A DNA stretch of 64,000 nucleotides from Thermodesulfobacteriota bacterium (GCA_964291405.2 OZ219926.1:3840001-3904000), one strand, 5' to 3'. Shown: positions 31,706 through 43,341, counted from the stretch's first letter. A program made the numbers and translations. The notes: a model not told the origin generated them from the sequence alone.

Positions 31706-33928
31706 ATGGTGGTCGGAAAGTCGAAAGGTGGAGGGGCGAAAAGTCGAAAGGTGGATGAAACTCCCCGTCTCTTTGACCGGGCATCCTCCCCACCCCCTCT
31801 TATCAAGGAGGGAGAACCGGCGCGTTCTTTCCGACCGCGCCAGCCGCCGCTCAAAAATTCGGTGCAGTACGTCAAGGGCGTGGGGCCGCGGCGGGCCGCA
31901 CAGTTGGCGCGGTTAGGCATAGAGACGGTCGAAGATCTGCTCTACCACATTCCCTTCCGCTATCAGGATCGGCGCGAAATCAAGAAAATTTGTCATCTTC
32001 AGGTGGGGGATGAGACGGCGGTCACCGGTCAAATCGCCCGTATGGAACGGCGCTTTCTGGCCCGCCGCCGTCGCTGGGTGCTCGAAGCCGTTGTCCGAGA
32101 CGAAACCGGTTTTCTCTTCCTGCTGTGGTATCACCAGCATCGCTATTTTCAGCAGCGCTATCAACTTGGTCAGCAGGTCCTGCTGTACGGCAAGGTCGAG
32201 AAGGGCATGAAGGGCGGCAAGTGGATGATCCACCCGGACATGGAGCCGCTGGAAGAAGAAGACGAGACCGCCCGTGTCTTGCCCATTTACAATAAGACCA
32301 CCGAAATGACGGTGGCTGCCATGCGCCGGGTCGTGCATGGTGCCGTTGACCGCTACGTCGATCAGGTCGCCAACGGCGTGCCACAGGAAATTTGTGATCG
32401 CTTGAACCTGATGCCGCTCAATCACGCCCTGCGGCAGTTGCACTTCCCCCCGCTCGATACTGAGGTTGTTGAACTCAATGAGGCCGCCTCTCAGGCGCAC
32501 CGGGCCGTGGTGTTCGATGAACTCTTTTATTTGCAACTGGGCATGGCCCTGCGCCGGCGCAATACCGTTCGGGAAGAGGGGTTGTCCATTGTGCCGGGAC
32601 CGCTCGTCCAGCAGATATATAGTATCCTGCCGTTTCAATTGACCGCAGCCCAGGAGCGGGTGGTTGAGATGATTTTTCGGGATATGGCGGCTCCCCACCC
32701 CATGAACCGCCTGGTCCAGGGAGATGTTGGCTCGGGCAAGACGATCGTAGCCTTCTTTGCGGCCCTGGCCGCCCTCGATAGCGGCTACCAGGTGGCTTTC
32801 ATGGCTCCGACGGAGCTCTTAGCTGAGCAGCACTACCGGACGCTGACGCCGCTGGCTGAGCAACTCGGCCTGTCCATGACGCTGCTGACCGGAGAAATCC
32901 GCCCGAAACGGAAACAAGAGATCTATGGTCTCCTGGAACGGGGCGAGGTCGAGGTCGCGGTTGGCACGCATGCCCTGATCCAGGAGGGCGTGCGCTTTCG
33001 GCATCTGGGTCTGGCCATCGTGGATGAGCAGCATCGCTTTGGGGTGATGCAGCGCGCCGCCCTGCGAAAACGCGGTGCGAACCCGGACATTCTGCTGCTG
33101 ACCGCAACCCCAATCCCCCGCACTCTGGCCCTGACCCTGTACGGCGACCTGGATGTCTCAGCTATTGATGAACGCCCGCCTGGCCGCAAGCCGATCACGA
33201 CCCATGTGTTCCATGAAGGCGAGCGAAAAAAAGCCTATCATCTCGTCAAAGACCAGCTCGAACGGGGCCATCAAGCCTATGTGGTCTATCCGCTGGTCGA
33301 GGAATCCGAGAAGTCCGACCTCAAGGCTGCGACCTCCATGGCTAAAGAGCTGGCCCAGACTTTCTTTGCCGACTATTCGGTCGGGCTCGTGCATGGCCGC
33401 ATGAAGGGCGGTGAAAAAGAAGCGGTTATGCAGCGCTTCAAGGCTGGCGAGCATCATTTGCTGGTTTCGACTACCGTCATTGAGGTCGGCATTGACGTGC
33501 CGAACGCGACCGTCATGGTGATTGAGCATGCCGAGCGCTTCGGTCTGGCACAGTTGCACCAGTTGCGCGGTCGAGTCGGACGCGGGCAGGCCGCCTCCTC
33601 GTGTTTGCTGCTGGCCCAGTACGCGCCGGGCGACGAGTCCCAGCGGCGTCTTCAGGTCATGACGGAAACCGATGACGGCTTCAAAATTGCCGAAGCTGAC
33701 TTGGCGTTTCGCGGGCCGGGCGAGTTTCTGGGCACACGCCAGTCCGGCATGCCCGACTTCCGGGTGGCCAATATCGTGCGTGACAGCAAACTGCTGGAAA
33801 CCGCGCGAGACGAAGCCCTGACCTGGCTCGAACGTGACCCCAATCTGACCACCCCCGAATCCCGCCGGCTACGCGCCGTCCTCGAAGACCGCTGGGCCGG
33901 CCGGCTGGAACTGGCCAGGGTGGGGTGA
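31706..33928 (+). CDS. recG: ATP-dependent DNA helicase RecG (start uncertain, 31706 or GTG 31751)
   Basis: VKGVGP, QGDVGSGKT, DEQHRFG, TATPIPRT, QLHQLRGRVGRG, RGPGE. Confidence 0.95.
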   Translation: MVVGKSKGGGAKSRKVDETPRLFDRASSPPPLIKEGEPARSFRPRQPPLKNSVQYVKGVGPRRAAQLARLGIETVEDLLYHIPFRYQDRREIKKICHLQVGDETAVTGQIARMERRFLARRRRWVLEAVVRDETGFLFLLWYHQHRYFQQRYQLGQQVLLYGKVEKGMKGGKWMIHPDMEPLEEEDETARVLPIYNKTTEMTVAAMRRVVHGAVDRYVDQVANGVPQEICDRLNLMPLNHALRQLHFPPLDTEVVELNEAASQAHRAVVFDELFYLQLGMALRRRNTVREEGLSIVPGPLVQQIYSILPFQLTAAQERVVEMIFRDMAAPHPMNRLVQGDVGSGKTIVAFFAALAALDSGYQVAFMAPTELLAEQHYRTLTPLAEQLGLSMTLLTGEIRPKRKQEIYGLLERGEVEVAVGTHALIQEGVRFRHLGLAIVDEQHRFGVMQRAALRKRGANPDILLLTATPIPRTLALTLYGDLDVSAIDERPPGRKPITTHVFHEGERKKAYHLVKDQLERGHQAYVVYPLVEESEKSDLKAATSMAKELAQTFFADYSVGLVHGRMKGGEKEAVMQRFKAGEHHLLVSTTVIEVGIDVPNATVMVIEHAERFGLAQLHQLRGRVGRGQAASSCLLLAQYAPGDESQRRLQVMTETDDGFKIAEADLAFRGPGEFLGTRQSGMPDFRVANIVRDSKLLETARDEALTWLERDPNLTTPESRRLRAVLEDRWAGRLELARVG
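31717..31755 (+). repeat. 16-bp direct repeat AAAGTCGAAAGGTGGA x2
   Basis: Exact copies at 31717-31732 and 31740-31755, at the carB-recG junction. Confidence 0.6.
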
Positions 33929-33948
33929 GCCTGACGCCGTTCCGCATT

Positions 33949-34557
33949 TCATTTTTTCGGCTTACCAGGGATCATTTCTAAAGACTCGATATCACGAGTG
34001 TTCAAATACACCCCACCCTGCGTTAAATCTCGTCGGATATGAAGGTCGTTGTCCACGAGATACGCTGGACGGAGGAGGAACTCATGATCTTCAGCCGCAG
34101 GGTCAAAAGAGTATTCCTTTACCCAGCCCAGGTAGAGTACGTCCTGCTTGGTACGAGCGAGTACCCAGAGGTCATCCTTGGGAGCATTGTCAACAACAAC
34201 ATGCCAGATAGCCTGGGGGTCAGGGGTTGGAAAGAAGTCAAGTTTGATACGGAGCCAATGCCCGGCGATAAGAATACCGCCCCAAATAGCCCCTCCACCG
34301 AGTAGAACTGCAATCATCATGGGCTGGATTTCGGAGCCCGAATCTGGGTTTAGGATGTCAGGGTCTTTACAGCCAAGCATATAAGCCGCAGTTGAGAGTC
34401 CTAAAAGTATTAGAAAGCTATGCAGGATGCTCCAGCCAATGGCCTCAAACCGAGACAGGGGCTTGGCCGGGTAGCGCACCCGATAAATCTGCATGGCGAG
34501 GAAACCAGGTAGCAAATAGAGAAGGAGGACGAGGGTATCGCCAAGAGGAATCTTCAT
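33949..34557 (-). CDS. DUF6338-like membrane protein (3 TM helices plus predicted Sm-like beta domain)
   Basis: 202 aa; LLYLLPGFLA first TM, two further hydrophobic segments, then WVLARTKQDVLYLGWVKEYS...FLLRPAYLV...GGVYLNTRDIESLEMI. Family name from recall. Confidence 0.7.
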   Translation of the reverse strand: MKIPLGDTLVLLLYLLPGFLAMQIYRVRYPAKPLSRFEAIGWSILHSFLILLGLSTAAYMLGCKDPDILNPDSGSEIQPMMIAVLLGGGAIWGGILIAGHWLRIKLDFFPTPDPQAIWHVVVDNAPKDDLWVLARTKQDVLYLGWVKEYSFDPAAEDHEFLLRPAYLVDNDLHIRRDLTQGGVYLNTRDIESLEMIPGKPKK

Positions 34558-34598
34558 AGTTCCAGTGGCTTCGGAGAAAGTCTGTTGTTGCTGGGTTG

Positions 34599-34796
34599 CT
34601 ACGAATCATCATTACCTGTTTTTTGCAGCGTCGCATCCGAGTTATCGCTCCCACTCGGTTGTTGTGAACCCTGGCCACTCGGTTGTTGTGGGTTCTGGAC
34701 TATAACCGGTGGGCTGGAATCTGGATCTTTATTGGTGTGTGTGTACGACCTCAAGAGATCGGGGTTGAAATTGGAATGATCATTGCGCTTCGGCAT
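34599..34796 (-). CDS. 65-aa low-complexity peptide (DLLRSY motif), upstream of the DUF6338-like gene
   Basis: GGAGGT RBS 4 nt before ATG 34796; MPKRNDHSNFNPDLLRSYTHTNKDPDSSPPVIVQNPQQPSGQGSQQPSGS...; internal 16-bp direct repeat encoding QQPSG twice. Confidence 0.65.
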   Translation of the reverse strand: MPKRNDHSNFNPDLLRSYTHTNKDPDSSPPVIVQNPQQPSGQGSQQPSGSDNSDATLQKTGNDDS

Positions 34797-34888
34797 ATTT
34801 ACCTCCAAATAGAAGTTAGTTAGCTAGATTCCTCTTACTATAGACGGACAACCGAATGCAAACTGAGGCATCACCGGATCACCAAGGT

Positions 34889-37800
34889 ATGAACATCAAC
34901 AATACTGTACAGGGCAGTCTGTTTGCCCGCGACTTTCTGACGGAATCCATCTCGCAGTTATCCGACTGGCAGGCTGTTGACGATGCGGCCCTGGACGAAT
35001 TTGAACGCGCGCTGCGGAGTATCTTCGACCCCTTCCCGACCGACCAGACCCCCAACGAGAGCCAGACCGAGGACGATCTGATCTGGCCGGTACTCGAAGC
35101 CTTGGACTGGACGGCCAGCCTGCGCCAGCAGAATCTCTCGTCGCGCGGTCGGGACGACGTGCCCGACGGTTTGCTCTTTGCCGACGAGGCGACCAAGGGC
35201 CGCGCCAACCGTTACCAGCAGGAATGGAGGCGTTACGAGTACGGCTCAGCCGTGGTCGAGTCCAAACGTTGGTAACGTCCGCTTGACCGGCGCTCCGACC
35301 GGCGGGGCGAGGAGACCGCGCCCTCGACCCAGATGTTGCGCTACATGCGACGGGTGGACGACCTGACGAACGGTGCGTTGCGCTGGGGCATGTTGATCAA
35401 TGGAGCCAAGTGGCGGCTGTACTGGGCTGGTGCGCGGTCCGTATCGGAACAGTTCTTCGAGCTTGACTTGGCGGCGGCCCTGAATCTGCCCGGCCATAAC
35501 GACGGCCTGTTCGCGCTGTCCGAGACCGACCGCCGGCACTGCCTCAAGCTGTTTTTGCTCTTCTTCCGGCGTAACGCCTTCCTGTCCGATCCTGCCACCG
35601 CAGATTCGCGCACGCTACACCAGCGCGTTCTCGATGAGGGCCGCGTTTACGAAGAACGGGTGTCCGCTGATTTGTCCGAGTTGGTTTTCAAACAGGTATT
35701 TCCCAAGTTGGCTCGGGCCATTTCCGAAGCTGCCCCGGACGCACCGTTGTCCGAGGTGCGTGACTCGGCCTTGATTCTGCTCTATCGGTTGCTGTTTATC
35801 CTGTATGCCGAAGACCGCGACCTGCTGCCGGTGCGGGATGAGCGCTACGACGATTACGGCCTGCGCGACAAGGTGCGGGGCGACATTGGGCGCCGTAAGA
35901 GCCAGGGCGATACCTTCTCAGCCAGCGCGGCCCGTTATTGGTCAATCATTGACGATCTGTGCCGAGCGATTGACCAAGGCGATACCTCGATTGGCCTGCC
36001 GCCCTATAACGGCGGTCTGTTCGACCGGCAACGCACGCCGCTGCTGACCACCGTCCGGTTGGGTGATGCGGTCATGGCCGACGTGATTGACGCGCTCTCG
36101 TTTGAGGTGACCGACCAGGGCCGGCGCTATATCAACTACCGTGATCTGAGCGTGCAGCAACTCGGTTCAATATACGAACGCCTGCTCGAATACGAAGTCG
36201 TCCGCGACGGCACCGCAATCAACGTGCAGCCTAATGTGTTCGCTCGCAAGGGCTTGGGCAGCTATTACACCCCGGACGATCTCGTAGAGGTGATTCTCAA
36301 GGAGACGGTCGGCCCGTTGGTCGAGTCCTGCACGGAGGCTTTTGCCAAGAGGGTAAGGCGCATTCGTCGGAGTCGCCGCGAGCCGAGCGCCGGACTTGCC
36401 GACCTCAGGCGGCTCGATCCTGCCGAGCGGCTCTTGGAACTGAAAATCTGTGATCCGGCCATGGGTTCCGGGCATTTTCTGGTCAGTCTGGTGGACTATC
36501 TGGCCGACAGCGTAATTGCCGCTCTTGCCGAGGCTCAGGCTACGGTTGAGAACTATGTTTCGCCGTTGACCGAGCGGATTGACGATATTCGCACCACCAT
36601 CCTGCATAATGCCAGCGAACGCGGCTGGACCATAGACGCGGAACAGCTTGACGACCGTCACATCATTCGCCGCATGGTGCTCAAGCGCTGCGTGTACGGC
36701 GTGGACAAAAACCCCATGGCCGTTGAACTGGCCAAGGTGTCGCTGTGGCTGCATACCTTTACCGTAGGGGCACCGCTGAGTTTTCTGGACCACCATTTGC
36801 GCTGCGGCAACAGTCTGTTCGGCTGCTGGGCGCGTCAGGGCATCGAGAAGATGAGTGCCGGTGAACCGGGCTGCGGACGCGGCCAACGCCATGCAGGTTG
36901 TTGAGCATCTGACGGATGCCGAGATTGCCGAGGCCCACCAGTCCGCCCAGACCTTTGCGCAGGTGGAAGCCATGACCGCGCCGCTCGACGCGTTTCTGTC
37001 GCTGCTGCACGCCCTGGACTGGCTGGATATCCGAAATCGTGACGACACGGCTGCGCTGCATGCTTTTTTCGAGGGCCGCCTGGGCGACCCGCTCGATATT
37101 GCACCGGGACAGTGCCCCGTCTCGACCGCCACACCCGACGGCGAACGGTTCGCCGGGCTGTTGGAACGGGCACGCACTCTCATGGCCGAAGAGCGCTTTC
37201 TGAACTGGCAGGCCGCATTTCCCGGTGTGTGGACAAATCTGAAGAATGTGGAGCCGGACGGCGGCTTTGACGCGGTCATCGGCAACCCGCCCTGGGACCG
37301 TATCAAGCTGCAACAGGTCGAATGGTTCGCGGCCCGCCGCCCCGAGATTGCCCTGGCCCAGCGCGCTGCGGACCGCAAGCGTATGATCGCTGCCTTGGAA
37401 AGGGAGGGCGATCCGCTGAGCCGCGATTTTGCCAAGGCGAGCGAACGAGCCGTCGCTGCCACGCGCATGGCGCGGGCGTGTGGCGATTACCCCTTGTTAT
37501 CGCGTGGCGACGTGAATCTCTATTCCCTGTTTGTCGAGCGGGCCATGACGCTGGTTAAGCCGACGGGCATGGTTGGCCTGCTCGTGCCGTCCGGCATTGC
37601 GTCGGACAAGACCGCCGCCGCGTTTTTTCAGGGCGTGGCAACGGAGGGGCGGTTGCGGGCGTTGTACGACTTCGAGAATCGTAGAACCAAGTTCAATGCA
37701 CCGCCGTTTTTCCCGGACGTGGATAGCCGTTTCAAGTTCTGTGCAATCGTGGCCAGCCCGACATCAACCAGCGAGCCTGCCCACTGCGCGTTCTTTTTGC

Positions 37801-38942
37801 AGGATGTCTCCGAACTCAACGACCCGGAGCGGCGTTTCCCGCTGACTGCTGAGGACTTCGCTCGTGTCAATCCGAATACCGGCACCGCACCCATCTTCCG
37901 CACCAGCCGTGACGCCAAGCTAACGACTGCAATCTACGAACGCCTGCCTGTGTTGGTAGATTGCTCTGGTGGCGAGGAAGTCAAGGCGTGGCCGGTACGA
38001 TACTCGACCATGTTTCACATGACGAACGATTCCGGCCTGTTCCGTACACGGGAAGAGTTGGAAGAAGGGGAGGGTGCATGGCCTATTGGTGGCAACCGTT
38101 TTGGTAGCCCAAGTGGGGAATGGGTACCGCTATACGAGGGAAAGATGGTGCAGGCGTTCGATCACCGGGCTGCGAAAGTGGTGGTTAATCCCGAAAATCA
38201 GCATCGACCGGCCCAGCCCGTGCCTGCTACCCTGGAGCAGCACCGAAACCCGGCCTGGTTGCCTGACCCGCAGTTTTGGGTGGCTACATCGGAGTGCGGC
38301 TACTCCCCGGAATCGGGTTGGGTTCTGGGCTTCAAGGAAATCACAGCCCCCACGAATGTCAGGACCTTTATCGCTGCGCTCCTGCCTGCGGTAGGTTTCG
38401 GGAACAAGGTACCAATCCTCAAATCGGAGACGGCGGACCGAACCGAATGGCTGTTGGCCGCCAATCTCAATGCAACGATTTTCGATTTCGCAGTACGGCA
38501 GAAAGTACAAGGCCAGACCTTGAACCTCTTCATCGTCGAACAGCTACCCGTCGTTCCGCCCGACCGCTACAACACCGTCCGTTTCGGCCCCAAGACCGCC
38601 GGCGAGATTGTCCGCGAGGCCGTGTTGGAACTCACCTACACGGCTCACGACATGGCCTCTTTTGCCCGTGACCTGGGCCATATTGATGAGACTGGCGAAG
38701 TAAATCCGCCGTTTGTGTGGGACGAAGAACGCCGGTTGCATCTGCGGGCCAAGCTCGACGCGGTGTTCTTTCATTTGTACGGCGTCACCGACCGCGATGA
38801 CGTGCGCTACATCTATTCCACCTTTCCCATTGTCGAACGCCAGGAAACGGCGACCTATGGCCGCTACCGCTCGCGTGATTTGTGTCTGGCGTGGCTGAAT
38901 GCCTTGGCGGCGGGAGAGCCGGACGCAGAGATTGATTTGTGA
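34889..38942 (+). pseudogene. Type IIG (Eco57I-like) fused restriction endonuclease / N6-adenine methyltransferase, disrupted
   Basis: VPDGLLF...VVESKRW nuclease motif, LILLYRLLFILYAED, YNGGLF, QLGSIYE, GSYYTP, DPAMGSGHFL (motif I), GNPPW (motif IV). In-frame TAA at 35273-35275 and a frame change near 36850 split it into three ORFs. Confidence 0.85.
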
Positions 38943-38973
38943 CGCAAGTGTCTCATGGTATGCTGTGGAACTG

Positions 38974-41900
38974 ATGGGTCATATGCAGGGCTACATCCAA
39001 CTTGATCGGAAATTTCTCGAGTTCGACGAACGGTTACAAGCTGGGGAAAGTGATGACTCTCTGTTTGCGTTTGACCTCTCATCTAAAATAGGGAAGTCCT
39101 GGTCGGACATACTGAAAAATCGTTGTACCGTTATTCTGGCCGAAGCGGGTTCTGGAAAAACTACGGAGTTACGTGCCCAGACGGAGCGTCTTCGTCGCGA
39201 GGGCCAATCGGCTTTTTTTTGCCGACTAGAAATACTGGCTGACGAGTCTTTTGAAGACGCCTTGGAGGCCGACACATCTCAGGATTTCCCGTCGTGGAGA
39301 GATAGCGACGCGCACGGCTATTTCTTCCTCGACTCGGTTGATGAGGCACGGCTTGCCAGTCCCGGCGCTTTTGAGACGGCTGTCATCCATTTCGCCAAAG
39401 TGGTCAGGCACTATATGCACCGCTCAACGGTCGTCATTTCGACTCGTCCCAATGCGTGGCAAGCTCAAGCTGACCCGGACATGCTCAAAAGACGATTAGC
39501 CCTCCCTGAAGAAGTTAAACCGGCAAGCAACGATACAAGGAATTATGATCTCAATAATGGAGGCCGACTTCCCACACGAGGGAGCAAAGGGGCCGAAACT
39601 ACTGGGATGGGGAAAAATTCGTTCGTCATAATGCAGATGTCGCCCTTGAATCAAAGCCAAATACAAATTTTTGCAGAGGCCAAAGGAATAACCGACATCA
39701 CCGCATTTATGGAAGCCATCAACCGCGCAGATGCGGACGTTTTTGCAACTCGGCCGGCGGACCTGCCCGGTCTCATTGATGCTTGGAAAAAGAAGGAACA
39801 CCTCGGGAACTATTCCGAAGTTGTCTTGAAAAATATTGAACTCAAATTGTCGGAAGAGAATCCCGTTCATGGGCCACAAGCCCCACTCTCGCAAGACCGT
39901 GCGCTTGAAGGTGCAAGAGTCCTGGCTGCCGCAGTGACCTTGACGACATGCACGTCAATTCTGCTTCCTGACGATCCTATTGAAGAGACCCTTCGTGAAA
40001 AATGCCTGGACCCTAAAGAAGTTCTGCCAGACTGGCAGTCTGCTGAGATTCGCGCCCTCCTCGGTCGTGCGCTGTTTGAAGAAGCGCTCTACGGTTCCGT
40101 TCGATTTCATCACCGGACCGCACGCGAGTATCTTACGGCATGTTGGTTTAAGAAGTTGCTTTCGCAACAAAAGAATCGCCGCAATATAGAATGCCTGTTC
40201 TTTGCCCGCCCCTATGGCGTCCTCCCCGAAATAGTTGCTCCTTCTCTCAAGCCGGTAGTCGGCTGGCTCGCCGTCTGGGACCCAGGAATTTGTACTCGTA
40301 CCTTGCACACCGACCCGAAAGTTTTGTTGGAATACGGAGACGCTTCGGCACTTGATATCAGGACCCGTGAAACCCTGTTGAGAGATTTTGCAAGCCGTTA
40401 CGAGAACCGTGATGACACTCCACTGAGCCTTCATGTTCGAGAAGTACGCCGTTTGGCGGATCACCGATTAGCCGGGGTCATACGTGATCTTCTCCAAAAA
40501 TATCGCAATCACGGCGACGTCAGAAGACTCTTGCTGCGTATCATTCGAGAAGAACGAATTCCTGATTGCGGGCAACTCGCCCACTCGTTGGCAATTGACC
40601 CCGAAATGGACGTTTACACGCGAAGTACCGCGGTACGGGCGGTCGGCTTGGCCGGAAACCCTGACGAGCAAAAACGGTTAGCCGAGGAAATTCTCGGTCA
40701 AGTTTCCAGTCTGGAGCAAGATATTGTGGGGGCAGCTATTGAAACGCTTTGGCCCAATGCCTTCACAGATCAAGATGTTTTGACGATTCTTGAAAAGACA
40801 CCTGTTCCTGAGCAGTTCGGGGCTGCCGAGTTGAAGTATGCAATCTCGCAAATGCCGGGGCGCATTTCGGACAGGAGCCGAGTCCAAAACCTTCTCGCCG
40901 CTGTGCTCAAACTCGTCTCACAGCCTCCCTGGCACCAAGACGAAATTTGCCGAATCTCGAAAAGATACGACTGGCTAGTAAACCTGCTCTGGGCTTTAGT
41001 GAAAAGGTTTAATTTCTTGCATGGCGCTCCAGAGACCGTTCCTGGGTTTCTATCGGCTATATCTTTGTGTGCTCGGTCCCATCATTATATTCGTCATTAT
41101 AGAGGCGATATGGATGATGAGATTGCTCAACTTCTTCATGGTAATGCCAAAATCAGACATGCGTTGTTCTGGTATAAGTATGAACAAGCCAGACAAGTGG
41201 AAGAGGAGCCTATTACTGATTATCGATTTATTTATGGATTCCCGCGTACAAGTGTCCTGGAGAAAGAGGATAGGGACTATTACCTTCAAGAACTTCGTGA
41301 GCGTTCGGACCCCGTAGAGAGACAGATCGTAATGTCTGTTCTGTTCGGGGTTTATAATGCCAGTAAAGATGTTGTCTTGCGCGAACGCATTAGGGATGCA
41401 GTGAGTGGTGCCCCGGACCTCGTAGCCGAATTCAACCGACTACTCACACCGTCCGCGCCCTCCGAAGCATACCTTGAGGCGCAAAGAGAGATTTCTGAAA
41501 GTCTCTTGCAAAGACAACAACAGGAAATAGAGGATGCCCAAGCACGTCAAGATTGGATTGAAAGATTGAAAGCCGACCCGAGTATGGTCGGCGACCTGTC
41601 CTTAGCTGCTGAGGGACAAGTCTGGAATAATACCTATGGGCTTCTACAGGAGATTGAAGAGAAAACCCATGCAGGTAATCGTCTAACAGCGTCCCAATGG
41701 GAACTTCTCATCCCTGAGTTTGGAGAGATCGTCGCCCAACGGTTCCGCGATTTCTGTCGAGATTTCTGGAGACGCTACACGCCGTCCGTGCGGTCCGAGA
41801 CCGCGGAGGGAAACCAGACGATAGCACCCGCTCTGATTGTTGGTACTAGCGGATTGGCTATGGAGGCCAACGGCGATGAGACATGGGCCGCCCAACTAAC

Positions 41901-43341
41901 CGATAATGAAGCGGAAATTGCGACGAGATACGCGCTTCGGGAACTGAATGATTTTCCAGATTGGTTCCCGGCTCTTCTGCAAGCGAAGCCTGAACCGGTC
42001 AGAAAGATGTTTCGGGAAGAGATTGAGTGGGAATGCAAAGCATTTCCTCCCGATAGCGTCCCACTCTATATTCTGGAAAAACTGCGCAACACCAGACTGC
42101 AAATGGGCAATGATCTGCGGGATGACATTACTGATATTCTGACGACTAAGACGAATATCCTGGTCAAGCCGCTAGAGAATGCTTTGGCTATTGTCCTGAA
42201 AGATTCTACGCTGTTACCCAAAACATTTCGGGATACTGTAGCTCGTCAGGCAGAAGAAGTTTCTTCCGAACAGCAAAAAGTGCTGTGGTTGTCAGCACTA
42301 CTCTGTCTGGATGCCGAGCACGCCCTCGATATCATGGAACCCTGGGTGAACAGTGGGACCAAGTGGGACGGAGAATGTCGAACGTCTCTTATTATCAATC
42401 ATCTCTGGGGACGCGATGCCGGGAGCTTCAATAGCGAACAGTGCAGCTATGAGCAGCTTGGTTGTCTTTCGCGACTGCTGGAAATTGTCCATTCCCATAT
42501 TCGGCTAGAGGAAGATATTGATCATGACGGTGCGTATTCTCCTGACCTCAGGGATAAAGCTCAGGACGCTCGTAGGCACCTCCTTAACTTGCTCTGTAGC
42601 ATTCCGGGAAAACTCACACGCGACACTCTAATTCGACTCTCAGAGTCCTCTCCACTTGAAAATTTCAAAGACCACTTACTCAATCTGGCCGACAGCCGTG
42701 CCGAAGCCGATGCGGATTTCAGCGCGTGGACTCCAAAGCAAGTCGCTGAATTCGGACGTGACGCAGAGCGGAGCCCGGAAACACAGAAGGAGCTTTTTGA
42801 AATTGCTGTGTCCCGCCTTGATGATATTAAGTTTGGTTTTGAAGAGGGTGATGATAGTGAAGCCAGCCTCTGGAGAAAGGCGGAGGATGAGCTTGAGTTG
42901 CGGCGTGCTATCGCGAACCGCTTGATGCTCGTCTCACGTAACAGGTACACAACCGGGTCGGAGGAGGAATTCGCCGATAAGAGTCGTACCGACATCCGTC
43001 TCCATAATCCCAAGGTAGATACGCGGATACCTATCGAAATCAAAATTGCCGGAAAGTGGAGCGCAAACCAGTTGCGCAAGCGCATGGAGAAGCAACTTGT
43101 AGGTCAATATCTCCGTGAAGCCTGTTACGGCGTATTCTTGTTGGTTAATCGGGGTGCGGAGGGTGACAAGAAGTATTGGCGACACCCCAAGAAACTCAGT
43201 TTTTCCACGCTCGTTCAATGGCTGAAAGACGAGAGCAGGACACTGCTGAACGAGCATGTCCAAGATGTAGAGGTAATTGGAATCGATCTGACGCGAAGAA
43301 CCGAGAAGGCTACCCAGAAAGCAAAGGAAGCAGGAGCGTAG
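38974..43341 (+). CDS. NACHT/STAND NTPase with long helical region and C-terminal PD-(D/E)XK nuclease-like domain
   Basis: Walker A VILAEAGSGKTT, Walker B YFFLDSVDE, sensor VISTRP, winged-helix FHHRTAREYLTA; C-terminal EEEFADKSRTDIRL...IPIEIK...QLVGQYL. Start at 38974 or 38983. Confidence 0.82.
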   Translation: MGHMQGYIQLDRKFLEFDERLQAGESDDSLFAFDLSSKIGKSWSDILKNRCTVILAEAGSGKTTELRAQTERLRREGQSAFFCRLEILADESFEDALEADTSQDFPSWRDSDAHGYFFLDSVDEARLASPGAFETAVIHFAKVVRHYMHRSTVVISTRPNAWQAQADPDMLKRRLALPEEVKPASNDTRNYDLNNGGRLPTRGSKGAETTGMGKNSFVIMQMSPLNQSQIQIFAEAKGITDITAFMEAINRADADVFATRPADLPGLIDAWKKKEHLGNYSEVVLKNIELKLSEENPVHGPQAPLSQDRALEGARVLAAAVTLTTCTSILLPDDPIEETLREKCLDPKEVLPDWQSAEIRALLGRALFEEALYGSVRFHHRTAREYLTACWFKKLLSQQKNRRNIECLFFARPYGVLPEIVAPSLKPVVGWLAVWDPGICTRTLHTDPKVLLEYGDASALDIRTRETLLRDFASRYENRDDTPLSLHVREVRRLADHRLAGVIRDLLQKYRNHGDVRRLLLRIIREERIPDCGQLAHSLAIDPEMDVYTRSTAVRAVGLAGNPDEQKRLAEEILGQVSSLEQDIVGAAIETLWPNAFTDQDVLTILEKTPVPEQFGAAELKYAISQMPGRISDRSRVQNLLAAVLKLVSQPPWHQDEICRISKRYDWLVNLLWALVKRFNFLHGAPETVPGFLSAISLCARSHHYIRHYRGDMDDEIAQLLHGNAKIRHALFWYKYEQARQVEEEPITDYRFIYGFPRTSVLEKEDRDYYLQELRERSDPVERQIVMSVLFGVYNASKDVVLRERIRDAVSGAPDLVAEFNRLLTPSAPSEAYLEAQREISESLLQRQQQEIEDAQARQDWIERLKADPSMVGDLSLAAEGQVWNNTYGLLQEIEEKTHAGNRLTASQWELLIPEFGEIVAQRFRDFCRDFWRRYTPSVRSETAEGNQTIAPALIVGTSGLAMEANGDETWAAQLTDNEAEIATRYALRELNDFPDWFPALLQAKPEPVRKMFREEIEWECKAFPPDSVPLYILEKLRNTRLQMGNDLRDDITDILTTKTNILVKPLENALAIVLKDSTLLPKTFRDTVARQAEEVSSEQQKVLWLSALLCLDAEHALDIMEPWVNSGTKWDGECRTSLIINHLWGRDAGSFNSEQCSYEQLGCLSRLLEIVHSHIRLEEDIDHDGAYSPDLRDKAQDARRHLLNLLCSIPGKLTRDTLIRLSESSPLENFKDHLLNLADSRAEADADFSAWTPKQVAEFGRDAERSPETQKELFEIAVSRLDDIKFGFEEGDDSEASLWRKAEDELELRRAIANRLMLVSRNRYTTGSEEEFADKSRTDIRLHNPKVDTRIPIEIKIAGKWSANQLRKRMEKQLVGQYLREACYGVFLLVNRGAEGDKKYWRHPKKLSFSTLVQWLKDESRTLLNEHVQDVEVIGIDLTRRTEKATQKAKEAGA

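Follow-up and report, generated by a model that had tools for sequence, protein, structure and literature searches.

We analysed a stretch of 64,000 nucleotides from a Thermodesulfobacteriota bacterium (GCA_964291405.2 OZ219926.1:3840001-3904000), called the window here and used for all coordinates unless another source is named. This analysis concerns two adjacent genes on its minus strand, which encode a small proline-rich protein of 65 amino acids (aa) and a 202-aa membrane protein of the DUF6338 family. The small-protein gene (34599..34796, stop codon included) was recognized from the listing of open reading frames (ORFs) and from homologous ORFs, and its product is hydrophilic and rich in Pro, Ser and Thr. 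The ATG at 34796 is internal to a 69-aa ORF that begins with TTG (34599..34808, minus strand), and the 65-aa peptide is read from it. A Shine-Dalgarno sequence, GGAGGT (34801..34806, minus strand), lies 5 nucleotides (nt) 5' of this ATG; the layout TTGGAGG-N5-ATG is repeated in relatives, most of which carry a GGAGG-type site before the chosen ATG. The DUF6338 gene follows at 33949..34557 (minus strand, stop codon included), with 41 nt between the stop codon of the small gene (34601-34599) and its own ATG (34557). The ribosome-binding site, the gap and the 65-aa ORF had all been reported in an initial annotation of the window, and each of them could be read in the sequence. In 20 loci, a median distance of 22 nt (range 0-91 nt) separates the small ORF from the start of DUF6338. 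The pair and recG, whose end is at 33928, are arranged tail to tail, and the pair is divergent from a gene of the type IIG restriction-modification / DrmMI-like class. Its GC content is 0.48-0.53, against 0.60-0.65 in the flanks on both sides.

The 202-aa protein matches Pfam DUF6338 (PF19865) with 56.8 bits, against a curated gathering cut-off of 26.5 (E 3e-15), which bears out the family membership first proposed for it. The match joins residues 8-198 of the protein to profile positions 8-202 of 205, and no other Pfam family was found at E <= 1. We collected 50 homologues, which are 36-100% identical to the 202-aa protein. Two AlphaFold models were built, the first from 22 close homologues (predicted local distance difference test score, pLDDT, 72.8) and the second from 82 diverse family members (pLDDT 92.3, predicted template modelling score 0.79). 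Both place the three hydrophobic helices of the initial annotation at residues 5-28, 36-60 and 79-105, which define a membrane part spanning residues 5-105 (34243..34545, minus strand), and both continue with a short helix (117-124) and a bent sheet (130-197). The third helix contains a G89-x-x-x-G93 motif. Averaged over 24 sequences, the first loop carries 2.0 Lys plus Arg and 0 Asp plus Glu, and the second 1.4 and 2.0, respectively; by the positive-inside rule, these charges suggest that the N-terminus is outside and the C-terminus inside, which would leave the C-terminal barrel in the cytoplasm.

The C-terminal domain (residues 111-198; 33964..34227, minus strand), one helix followed by a bent sheet of five or six strands, was identified as an Sm fold by structure search. 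When the second model was used as a query, VIA-align aligned SmAP1 (1loj_A) over 76/76 residues with a Z score of 9.3 and a root-mean-square deviation of 2.2; 18 chains were found at Z >= 8, and rows 1-43 were all Sm/LSm/Hfq or Sm-like. The top rows of Foldseek were likewise all Sm/LSm (best E 7.6e-3), and structure searches with the weaker first model also returned Sm/LSm/Hfq chains almost exclusively. At the sequence level, no LSM or Hfq Pfam family matched the protein at E <= 1, and a profile of 24 sequences retrieved no Sm protein from the PDB sequences at E <= 10, its only rows being chance-level NorA matches (E >= 1). Of the Sm-like domain that had been proposed from the sequence, the fold is thus upheld, while the Sm1/Sm2 residue pattern is not recovered by sequence profiles and amounts to a visual resemblance. 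In the models, the 202-aa protein combines three membrane helices with a complete Sm-fold barrel.

One segment of the barrel, G-V-Y-L-N-T-R-D (residues 182-189; 33991..34014, minus strand), is invariant across the 24 sequences of this clade, which are otherwise 28-64% identical. It falls at the turn between strands 4 and 5, at model strands 183-186 and 190-197. The Sm2 motif of Sm proteins sits at the turn of the last two strands, and the segment may match Sm2 residue by residue in the modelled structure. Among the 82 diverse sequences, only P17, G18, G93, W118, Y142, G144, P153, L162 and E194 are at least 90% conserved; these few residues are not enzyme-like, and an enzymatic role was set aside on that account. 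A role as a holin was also considered and set aside. In the ESM Atlas, the look-alike of the membrane protein is an unnamed cluster (score 0.91) in which about half of the six members with a known phylum are viral, which is a lead only.

These structural matches raise the question of whether a ring of this fold could bind RNA or a nucleotide at the membrane, the small proteins being accessory factors or mimics. Indeed, the nearest matches are RNA-binding Sm, LSm and Hfq proteins, with SmAP1 bound to uridine monophosphate among the closest, and the invariant turn contains an Arg where the Arg-Gly of Sm2 lies. However, besides the missing sequence-level match to LSM profiles or solved Sm proteins, the partner that is strictly co-inherited with the membrane protein is a protein and not an RNA, and an Rfam search of the locus gave no meaningful match and no conserved structure signal. 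We consider this explanation quite unlikely.

The small protein has no hydrophobic segment. An alignment of 25 peptides revealed a conserved core, R-S-Y-T-H-T-N-x-x-P-x-x-x-P-P at residues 16-30 here (34707..34751, minus strand), which contains two invariant residues, H20 and P25, and three more (S17, T19 and P30) with at least 90% conservation; no conservation is seen in the tails on either side. Clade-wide, the core reads [KR]-S-[FY]-T-H-x-N-P-x-P-x-T-x-P-P within a protein of about 60 aa, and the 25 homologues contain on average 15% hydrophobic residues, 13% Ser, 13% Pro and 10% Thr. No Pfam family matched the small protein. The profile of the 25 peptides retrieved 19 predicted proteins from a public collection, all unnamed or labelled 'hypothetical' and none with a Pfam family. 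Neither protein of the pair had a match in NCBIfam, PHROG or PADLOC.

A same-strand ORF with the motif was found directly upstream of DUF6338 in each of the 34 related loci whose sequence extends upstream of the gene, as expected from the proposal that homologues would have a small ORF beside them. These loci comprise 11/11 genome loci, 21/21 metagenome loci with the full gene and two decayed loci. The genome loci, found with the DUF6338 alignment, belong to metagenome-assembled genomes (MAGs) of Nitrospirales, Binatia and Gammaproteobacteria; of the 26 metagenome loci returned, three (L034, L036 and L037) begin inside the gene and are not assessable, and two (L038 and L039) are the decayed ones. 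The pairing is kept down to 27% DUF6338 identity, and a further genome of the same phylum (L044) has an upstream small ORF as well. In locus L012, the small ORF is hidden within a longer frame, and in L011 its motif is degenerate. Over 32 loci, the pattern [STK][FYILVM]TH..[PV].P occurs in 31 of the 48 same-strand ORFs ending within 120 nt upstream of the gene, compared with 0 of 2112 other ORFs, a pairing far beyond chance.

The coding nature of the small ORF was supported by its pattern of substitution. In 16/16 close pairs, the proportion of non-synonymous differences (pN) is below that of synonymous differences (pS) and third-position differences are dominant; the ratio of the corresponding rates (dN/dS) is 0.07-0.66 in the 12 pairs with unsaturated pS. 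Judged on these sequence comparisons, the small ORF is under purifying selection, and the 65-aa upstream ORF is a real gene that looks translated. It might be argued that it is a regulatory leader only, acting for example by ribosome stalling at its prolines, with a functionless product: it is short, with a strong ribosome-binding site and runs of prolines, and its end and the membrane gene are 0-91 nt apart. Yet some 35 codons separate the conserved residues from the stop, selection acts on the whole ORF, and the rest of the family has small ORFs downstream, where they are unable to act as leaders and, in one species discussed below, yield abundant proteins (PMC10433244). A leader without a functional product is therefore highly improbable.

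At all loci surveyed, the two genes are also inherited together. The identities of the peptides and of the DUF6338 proteins correlate (r 0.66, a value reached in 0 of 2000 permutations), which shows co-inheritance and not binding. The peptide ORF is present in all 31 loci with a whole DUF6338 gene, counting L011 with its degenerate motif. Three decayed loci have an intact peptide gene next to a truncated DUF6338 gene, cut after about 58 residues in L013 and about 32 in L038 and missing just the last 24 residues in L039; small as these numbers are, such an asymmetry would be expected if the membrane protein were harmful without its partner. Complex prediction with the DUF6338 and peptide alignments gave scores of 0.17 and 0.20 against a mark of 0.32 and was run with no controls, so that it speaks neither for nor against binding. 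Taken together, it is close to certain that the two genes are a genuine cognate pair and that the membrane protein has an Sm fold.

DUF6338 genes outside this clade have no upstream ORF; instead, four of them (L041, L042, L043 and L002) each have a small ORF with 9-28% Pro directly downstream, while L040 ends too early for a downstream ORF to be judged. A tblastn search with the L042 protein found 16 of 72,556 plasmid records and one of 50,697 phage records, the latter a phage-plasmid. Eleven loci were surveyed, from ten of the 16 plasmid records and the phage-plasmid, and in ten of them DUF6338 is followed immediately, on the same strand, by between one and three ORFs that contain G-[YFW]-x-P motifs and in many cases have P-P-x-K-K at their end (L055 has no clear one). 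The motif is present in 14/36 downstream ORFs, compared with 7/456 elsewhere, and two homologous Acinetobacter pairs of these ORFs have pN/pS values of 0.19/0.60 and 0.35/0.77. The R/K-[GS]-Y motif that the initial annotation had suggested looking for in small ORFs beside homologues fits both the upstream [KR]-S-[FY]-T-H and the downstream G-[YFW]-x-P peptides. Some of the downstream ORFs are annotated as hypothetical proteins and others are not annotated; examples of the latter, in coordinates of their own records, are L048 3091-3276, L049 3072-3260, L050 3282-3425, L051 3062-3199, L052 3065-3259 and L056 1819-2058.

A tree built from 40 DUF6338 proteins contains a branch, supported 100/98, that separates the 25 proteins with an upstream peptide from all the others; it should be noted that the groups were defined by the upstream peptide itself, so the tree is descriptive and not a test. 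The clade of the 202-aa protein is divergent, with Pfam scores of about 50-57 bits against 108-131 bits for L040-L042. Its profile hits 1161 clusters (50% identity) at E <= 1e-3 among 1.84 billion representatives, and the DUF6338 family as a whole is spread over many phyla, plasmids and one phage-plasmid. No relatives of the 202-aa protein itself were found in viral contigs, phage records or plasmid records. The genome of the window also has a second DUF6338 copy, of the other clade (L002, G000:C3:2954773-2955204), which is open for 155 aa only and whose C-terminal part apparently continues in another frame; a 69-aa ORF, 26% of whose residues are proline, comes next, and a Phd/YefM-like antitoxin gene lies nearby.

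Products of downstream small genes have been detected in one organism. In Pseudomonas stutzeri ATCC 14405, mass spectrometry identified three novel proline-rich proteins (36-47 aa) whose genes are predicted to share an operon with DUF6338; they gave 44-114 spectra with 98-100% coverage, and the authors of that study considered them species-specific (PMC10433244). The coordinates given there put all three directly downstream of the DUF6338 gene. Small proline-rich partner genes, one to three per locus, are thus a theme across the DUF6338 family.

The multiplicity of these genes invites a different interpretation, in which the small proteins would be a cargo or product (for instance a pheromone, a bacteriocin-like peptide or some other released peptide) and the DUF6338 protein would export them, provide the platform for their processing or confer immunity. 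Loci of the wider family have between one and three diversified small genes in tandem, like many peptide-precursor loci, the variable tails are rich in Ser, Thr, Asn and Gln, and the domain is said to occur in biosynthetic gene clusters too (PMC10433244). However, the peptides have neither a signal peptide nor a hydrophobic or Cys-rich core, no modifying enzyme, protease or ABC exporter is conserved beside the pair, and polar residues of a catalytic or transporter-like kind are not conserved in the membrane protein. In addition, the full-length P. stutzeri peptides were found in non-membrane cell extracts, with the high coverage given above (PMC10433244). This interpretation is unlikely to be the right one.

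Within the phylum, 6/301 genomes encode a protein above the Pfam cut-off, and a genome of the same genus (G110) has no DUF6338. The closest syntenic relative, a Candidatus Binatia MAG (L012), shares the order recG, cassette, restriction gene; RecG is 95% identical and the restriction protein 89%, but DUF6338 only 55%, and the 202-aa protein is closer to its homologues in L007/L008 (63% identity). Because the identity of DUF6338 is far below that of the flanking RecG and restriction gene, the cassette was either exchanged or fast diverged at a fixed site. The pair is a self-contained, horizontally moving two-gene operon.

This distribution bears on whether the protein could be a housekeeping MscS-type channel whose gating is tuned by the small protein. 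The architecture and topology are shared, with an outward-facing N-terminus, three helices of which the third is glycine-rich, and an Sm-like domain in the cytoplasm, and to that extent the analogy with MscS drawn in the initial annotation stands. It has no counterpart in profiles, as no MS_channel match was found at E <= 1, and sporadic presence with exchange at one site among close relatives is atypical of osmotic housekeeping. A tuned housekeeping channel is thus very unlikely.

The genes around the close loci vary; of the 110 neighbouring ORFs, 78 were compared with Pfam. Restriction-modification genes lie beside the pair at the locus in the window and in L012 and L013. Other neighbours of close relatives include a helix-turn-helix gene and T5orf172 in L004, and IS66 and a NucS-like gene in L011. 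At the plasmid loci, the neighbours are nucleotidyltransferase plus SLATT, MPN, TIR plus caspase behind TnsE, CHAT, RelE/ParE and MazF, and the DUF6338 region of P. stutzeri has an OLD nuclease neighbour, SNF2/PLD and IS66 (PMC10433244). The defence-type neighbourhood first described for the window is recovered, with the type IIG restriction-modification gene and, beyond it, a lead to a STAND/NACHT-like protein described below.

Our preferred reading is that the pair is an accessory conflict module of the toxin-antitoxin or abortive-infection type. The small protein and the barrel, both presumably cytoplasmic, would be in contact, the small protein acting as the cognate ligand or regulator of the DUF6338 protein. 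Its aromatic-proline core may dock on the barrel face that bears the G-V-Y-L-N-T-R-D turn; in Sm and Hfq rings, the corresponding surface surrounds the central hole, and each subunit binds one ligand there. The membrane protein might assemble into a ring through the barrel and the GxxxG helix, and such a ring could disturb the membrane. The membrane protein would then be the effector, which an unstable small protein silences or triggers. We infer this mechanism as a whole, from binding through the ring to the effector/regulator conflict module, with a probability of roughly 0.4.

Several observations weigh against it. In PADLOC-DB 2.0.0, no model matches either protein of the pair (E <= 1) or five other DUF6338 proteins (E <= 0.01), and Pfam detects in the small protein no DNA-binding domain of the kind typical of type II antitoxins. 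Tandem, multi-copy small genes, as seen in the wider family, would be an unusual arrangement for antitoxins. Of the 12 close loci, about half are flanked by housekeeping genes only (RlmN/ATP synthase, CoA-transferase, acyl-CoA dehydrogenase/RNase R), and the plasmid loci were drawn from a plasmid library, which makes their mobile context partly a matter of selection. The P. stutzeri peptides are abundant in ordinary growth, which fits a constitutive partner but other roles too (PMC10433244). Finally, the peptide T-H-E-[RK]-P goes with the barrel R-D-V-[KR]-R, but this charge covariation is confounded by phylogeny.

A bolder version of the conflict module can be formulated, in which a membrane Sm ring reads short aromatic-proline motifs of the tiny disordered proteins in the pockets that bind nucleotides in classical Sm and Hfq rings, and the pair works as a peptide-gated abortive-infection or addiction module. 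When phages or plasmids attack, the small protein would be lost, cleaved or displaced, the ring-linked helices would open and the membrane would collapse; the two gene orders, with the peptide upstream or downstream, would derive from one ancestor. We regard this version as speculative and doubtful; if true, DUF6338 proteins would be a new class of membrane effector.

We rate the pair as a kind of system without a characterised counterpart, with the caveat that the protein family is already a catalogued domain of unknown function (DUF). In the literature searched, no function or system description was found for DUF6338 / PF19865, the only published trace being the P. stutzeri proteomics (PMC10433244). 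As a result of the present analysis, a domain with no assigned function can be approached as a two-component system open to direct testing, and the ancient Sm fold gains a second, non-RNA context. The family carries a membrane-anchored Sm fold, is accompanied by tiny obligatory partner genes, of which many lack annotation in RefSeq plasmids, and behaves like defence-island cargo.

Some further features of the locus were recorded. No sigma-70-like promoter was found there, and the one terminator-like site is inside a gene and at chance level only. The only RNA run with part of the stretch gave a single 192-nt contig (34298-34486) within the membrane gene and no coverage of the peptide ORF, data too thin to claim or deny transcription of either gene. 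Strain variants in run X3 carry in-frame insertions of 3 nt at 34544, near the start of the membrane gene, and of 12 nt at 34684, in a repeat-like Gln/Pro/Ser/Gly part of the small gene; in one X3 contig, 176 nt of the small ORF are skipped or replaced (34619-34796). Public runs that contain 33400-35400 are, where labelled, sponge or marine metagenomes; those that match it best carry coded names.

Further observations concern the neighbouring genes. The type IIG restriction-modification / DrmMI-like gene (34856-38942, plus strand) is split into three reading frames of 139, 523 and 695 aa; since the L012 counterpart, which is 89% identical, stays in a single frame for at least 1171 aa, the split reflects either a pseudogene or assembly frameshifts. 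Its end is overlapped by a 1480-aa ORF (38899-43341, plus strand), whose GC content is lower, mostly 0.43-0.55, in the first 2.7 kilobases or so and which matched no Pfam or PADLOC family at 1e-5. The ESM Atlas groups this ORF with NACHT/STAND-type clusters (score 1.00, a lead only), and Pfam gives weak P-loop matches at residues 73-110 (nSTAND_NTPase5, E 0.025); it may be a bacterial NLR-like defence gene. In Nitrospirales, the near-identical loci L003 and L004 differ by a 454-aa T5orf172/DUF4041 gene that follows DUF6338 in L004 only, a case of local gene turnover beside the cassette. Locus L013 is flanked by an EcoO109I restriction-modification pair on its upstream side and by integrase-type genes on the other.

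The pair can be compared with several known systems. The 202-aa protein matches Pfam DUF6338 end to end and above the cut-off, but belongs to a divergent clade marked by the invariant G-V-Y-L-N-T-R-D and the upstream small gene. The P. stutzeri operon resembles it in combining DUF6338 with same-strand, hydrophilic, proline-rich small proteins in a defence/mobile region; it differs in that its peptides are downstream, are 36-47 aa long, have poly-proline plus Lys/Arg at their ends and carry another motif (PMC10433244). With Sm, LSm and Hfq proteins, the 202-aa protein shares the complete Sm fold, an N-terminal helix and a bent sheet, but here the fold is fused to three membrane helices, its partner is a peptide and no sequence profile matches.

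MscS has three membrane helices, the last of them glycine-rich, and a cytoplasmic Sm-like beta domain. The 202-aa protein, with its three helices, glycine-rich last helix and predicted cytoplasmic Sm-like domain, is like it in architecture only; unlike MscS, it is much smaller, has no C-terminal alpha/beta domain and is encoded by an accessory mobile gene with an obligatory small partner. MscS was absent from the 50 rows of the structure search, which were filled by Sm/LSm chains, an absence that does not exclude it.

Membrane-effector toxin-antitoxin and abortive-infection modules share with the pair a small operon in which a hydrophilic small gene comes first and a membrane protein second, and two small co-directional genes in one operon are what is expected of a type II toxin-antitoxin locus. 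Islands with restriction and toxin-antitoxin genes are also shared, as is a small gene that outlives the membrane gene in decayed copies; the difference is that the pair has no homology to a known toxin, antitoxin or PADLOC model. Finally, SH3-type recognition offers an analogy, as it likewise joins a small beta barrel of the SH3/Sm class to a proline-rich linear motif, and the WYL domains of defence loci, which are Sm-like barrels, have reportedly been proposed as ligand sensors.

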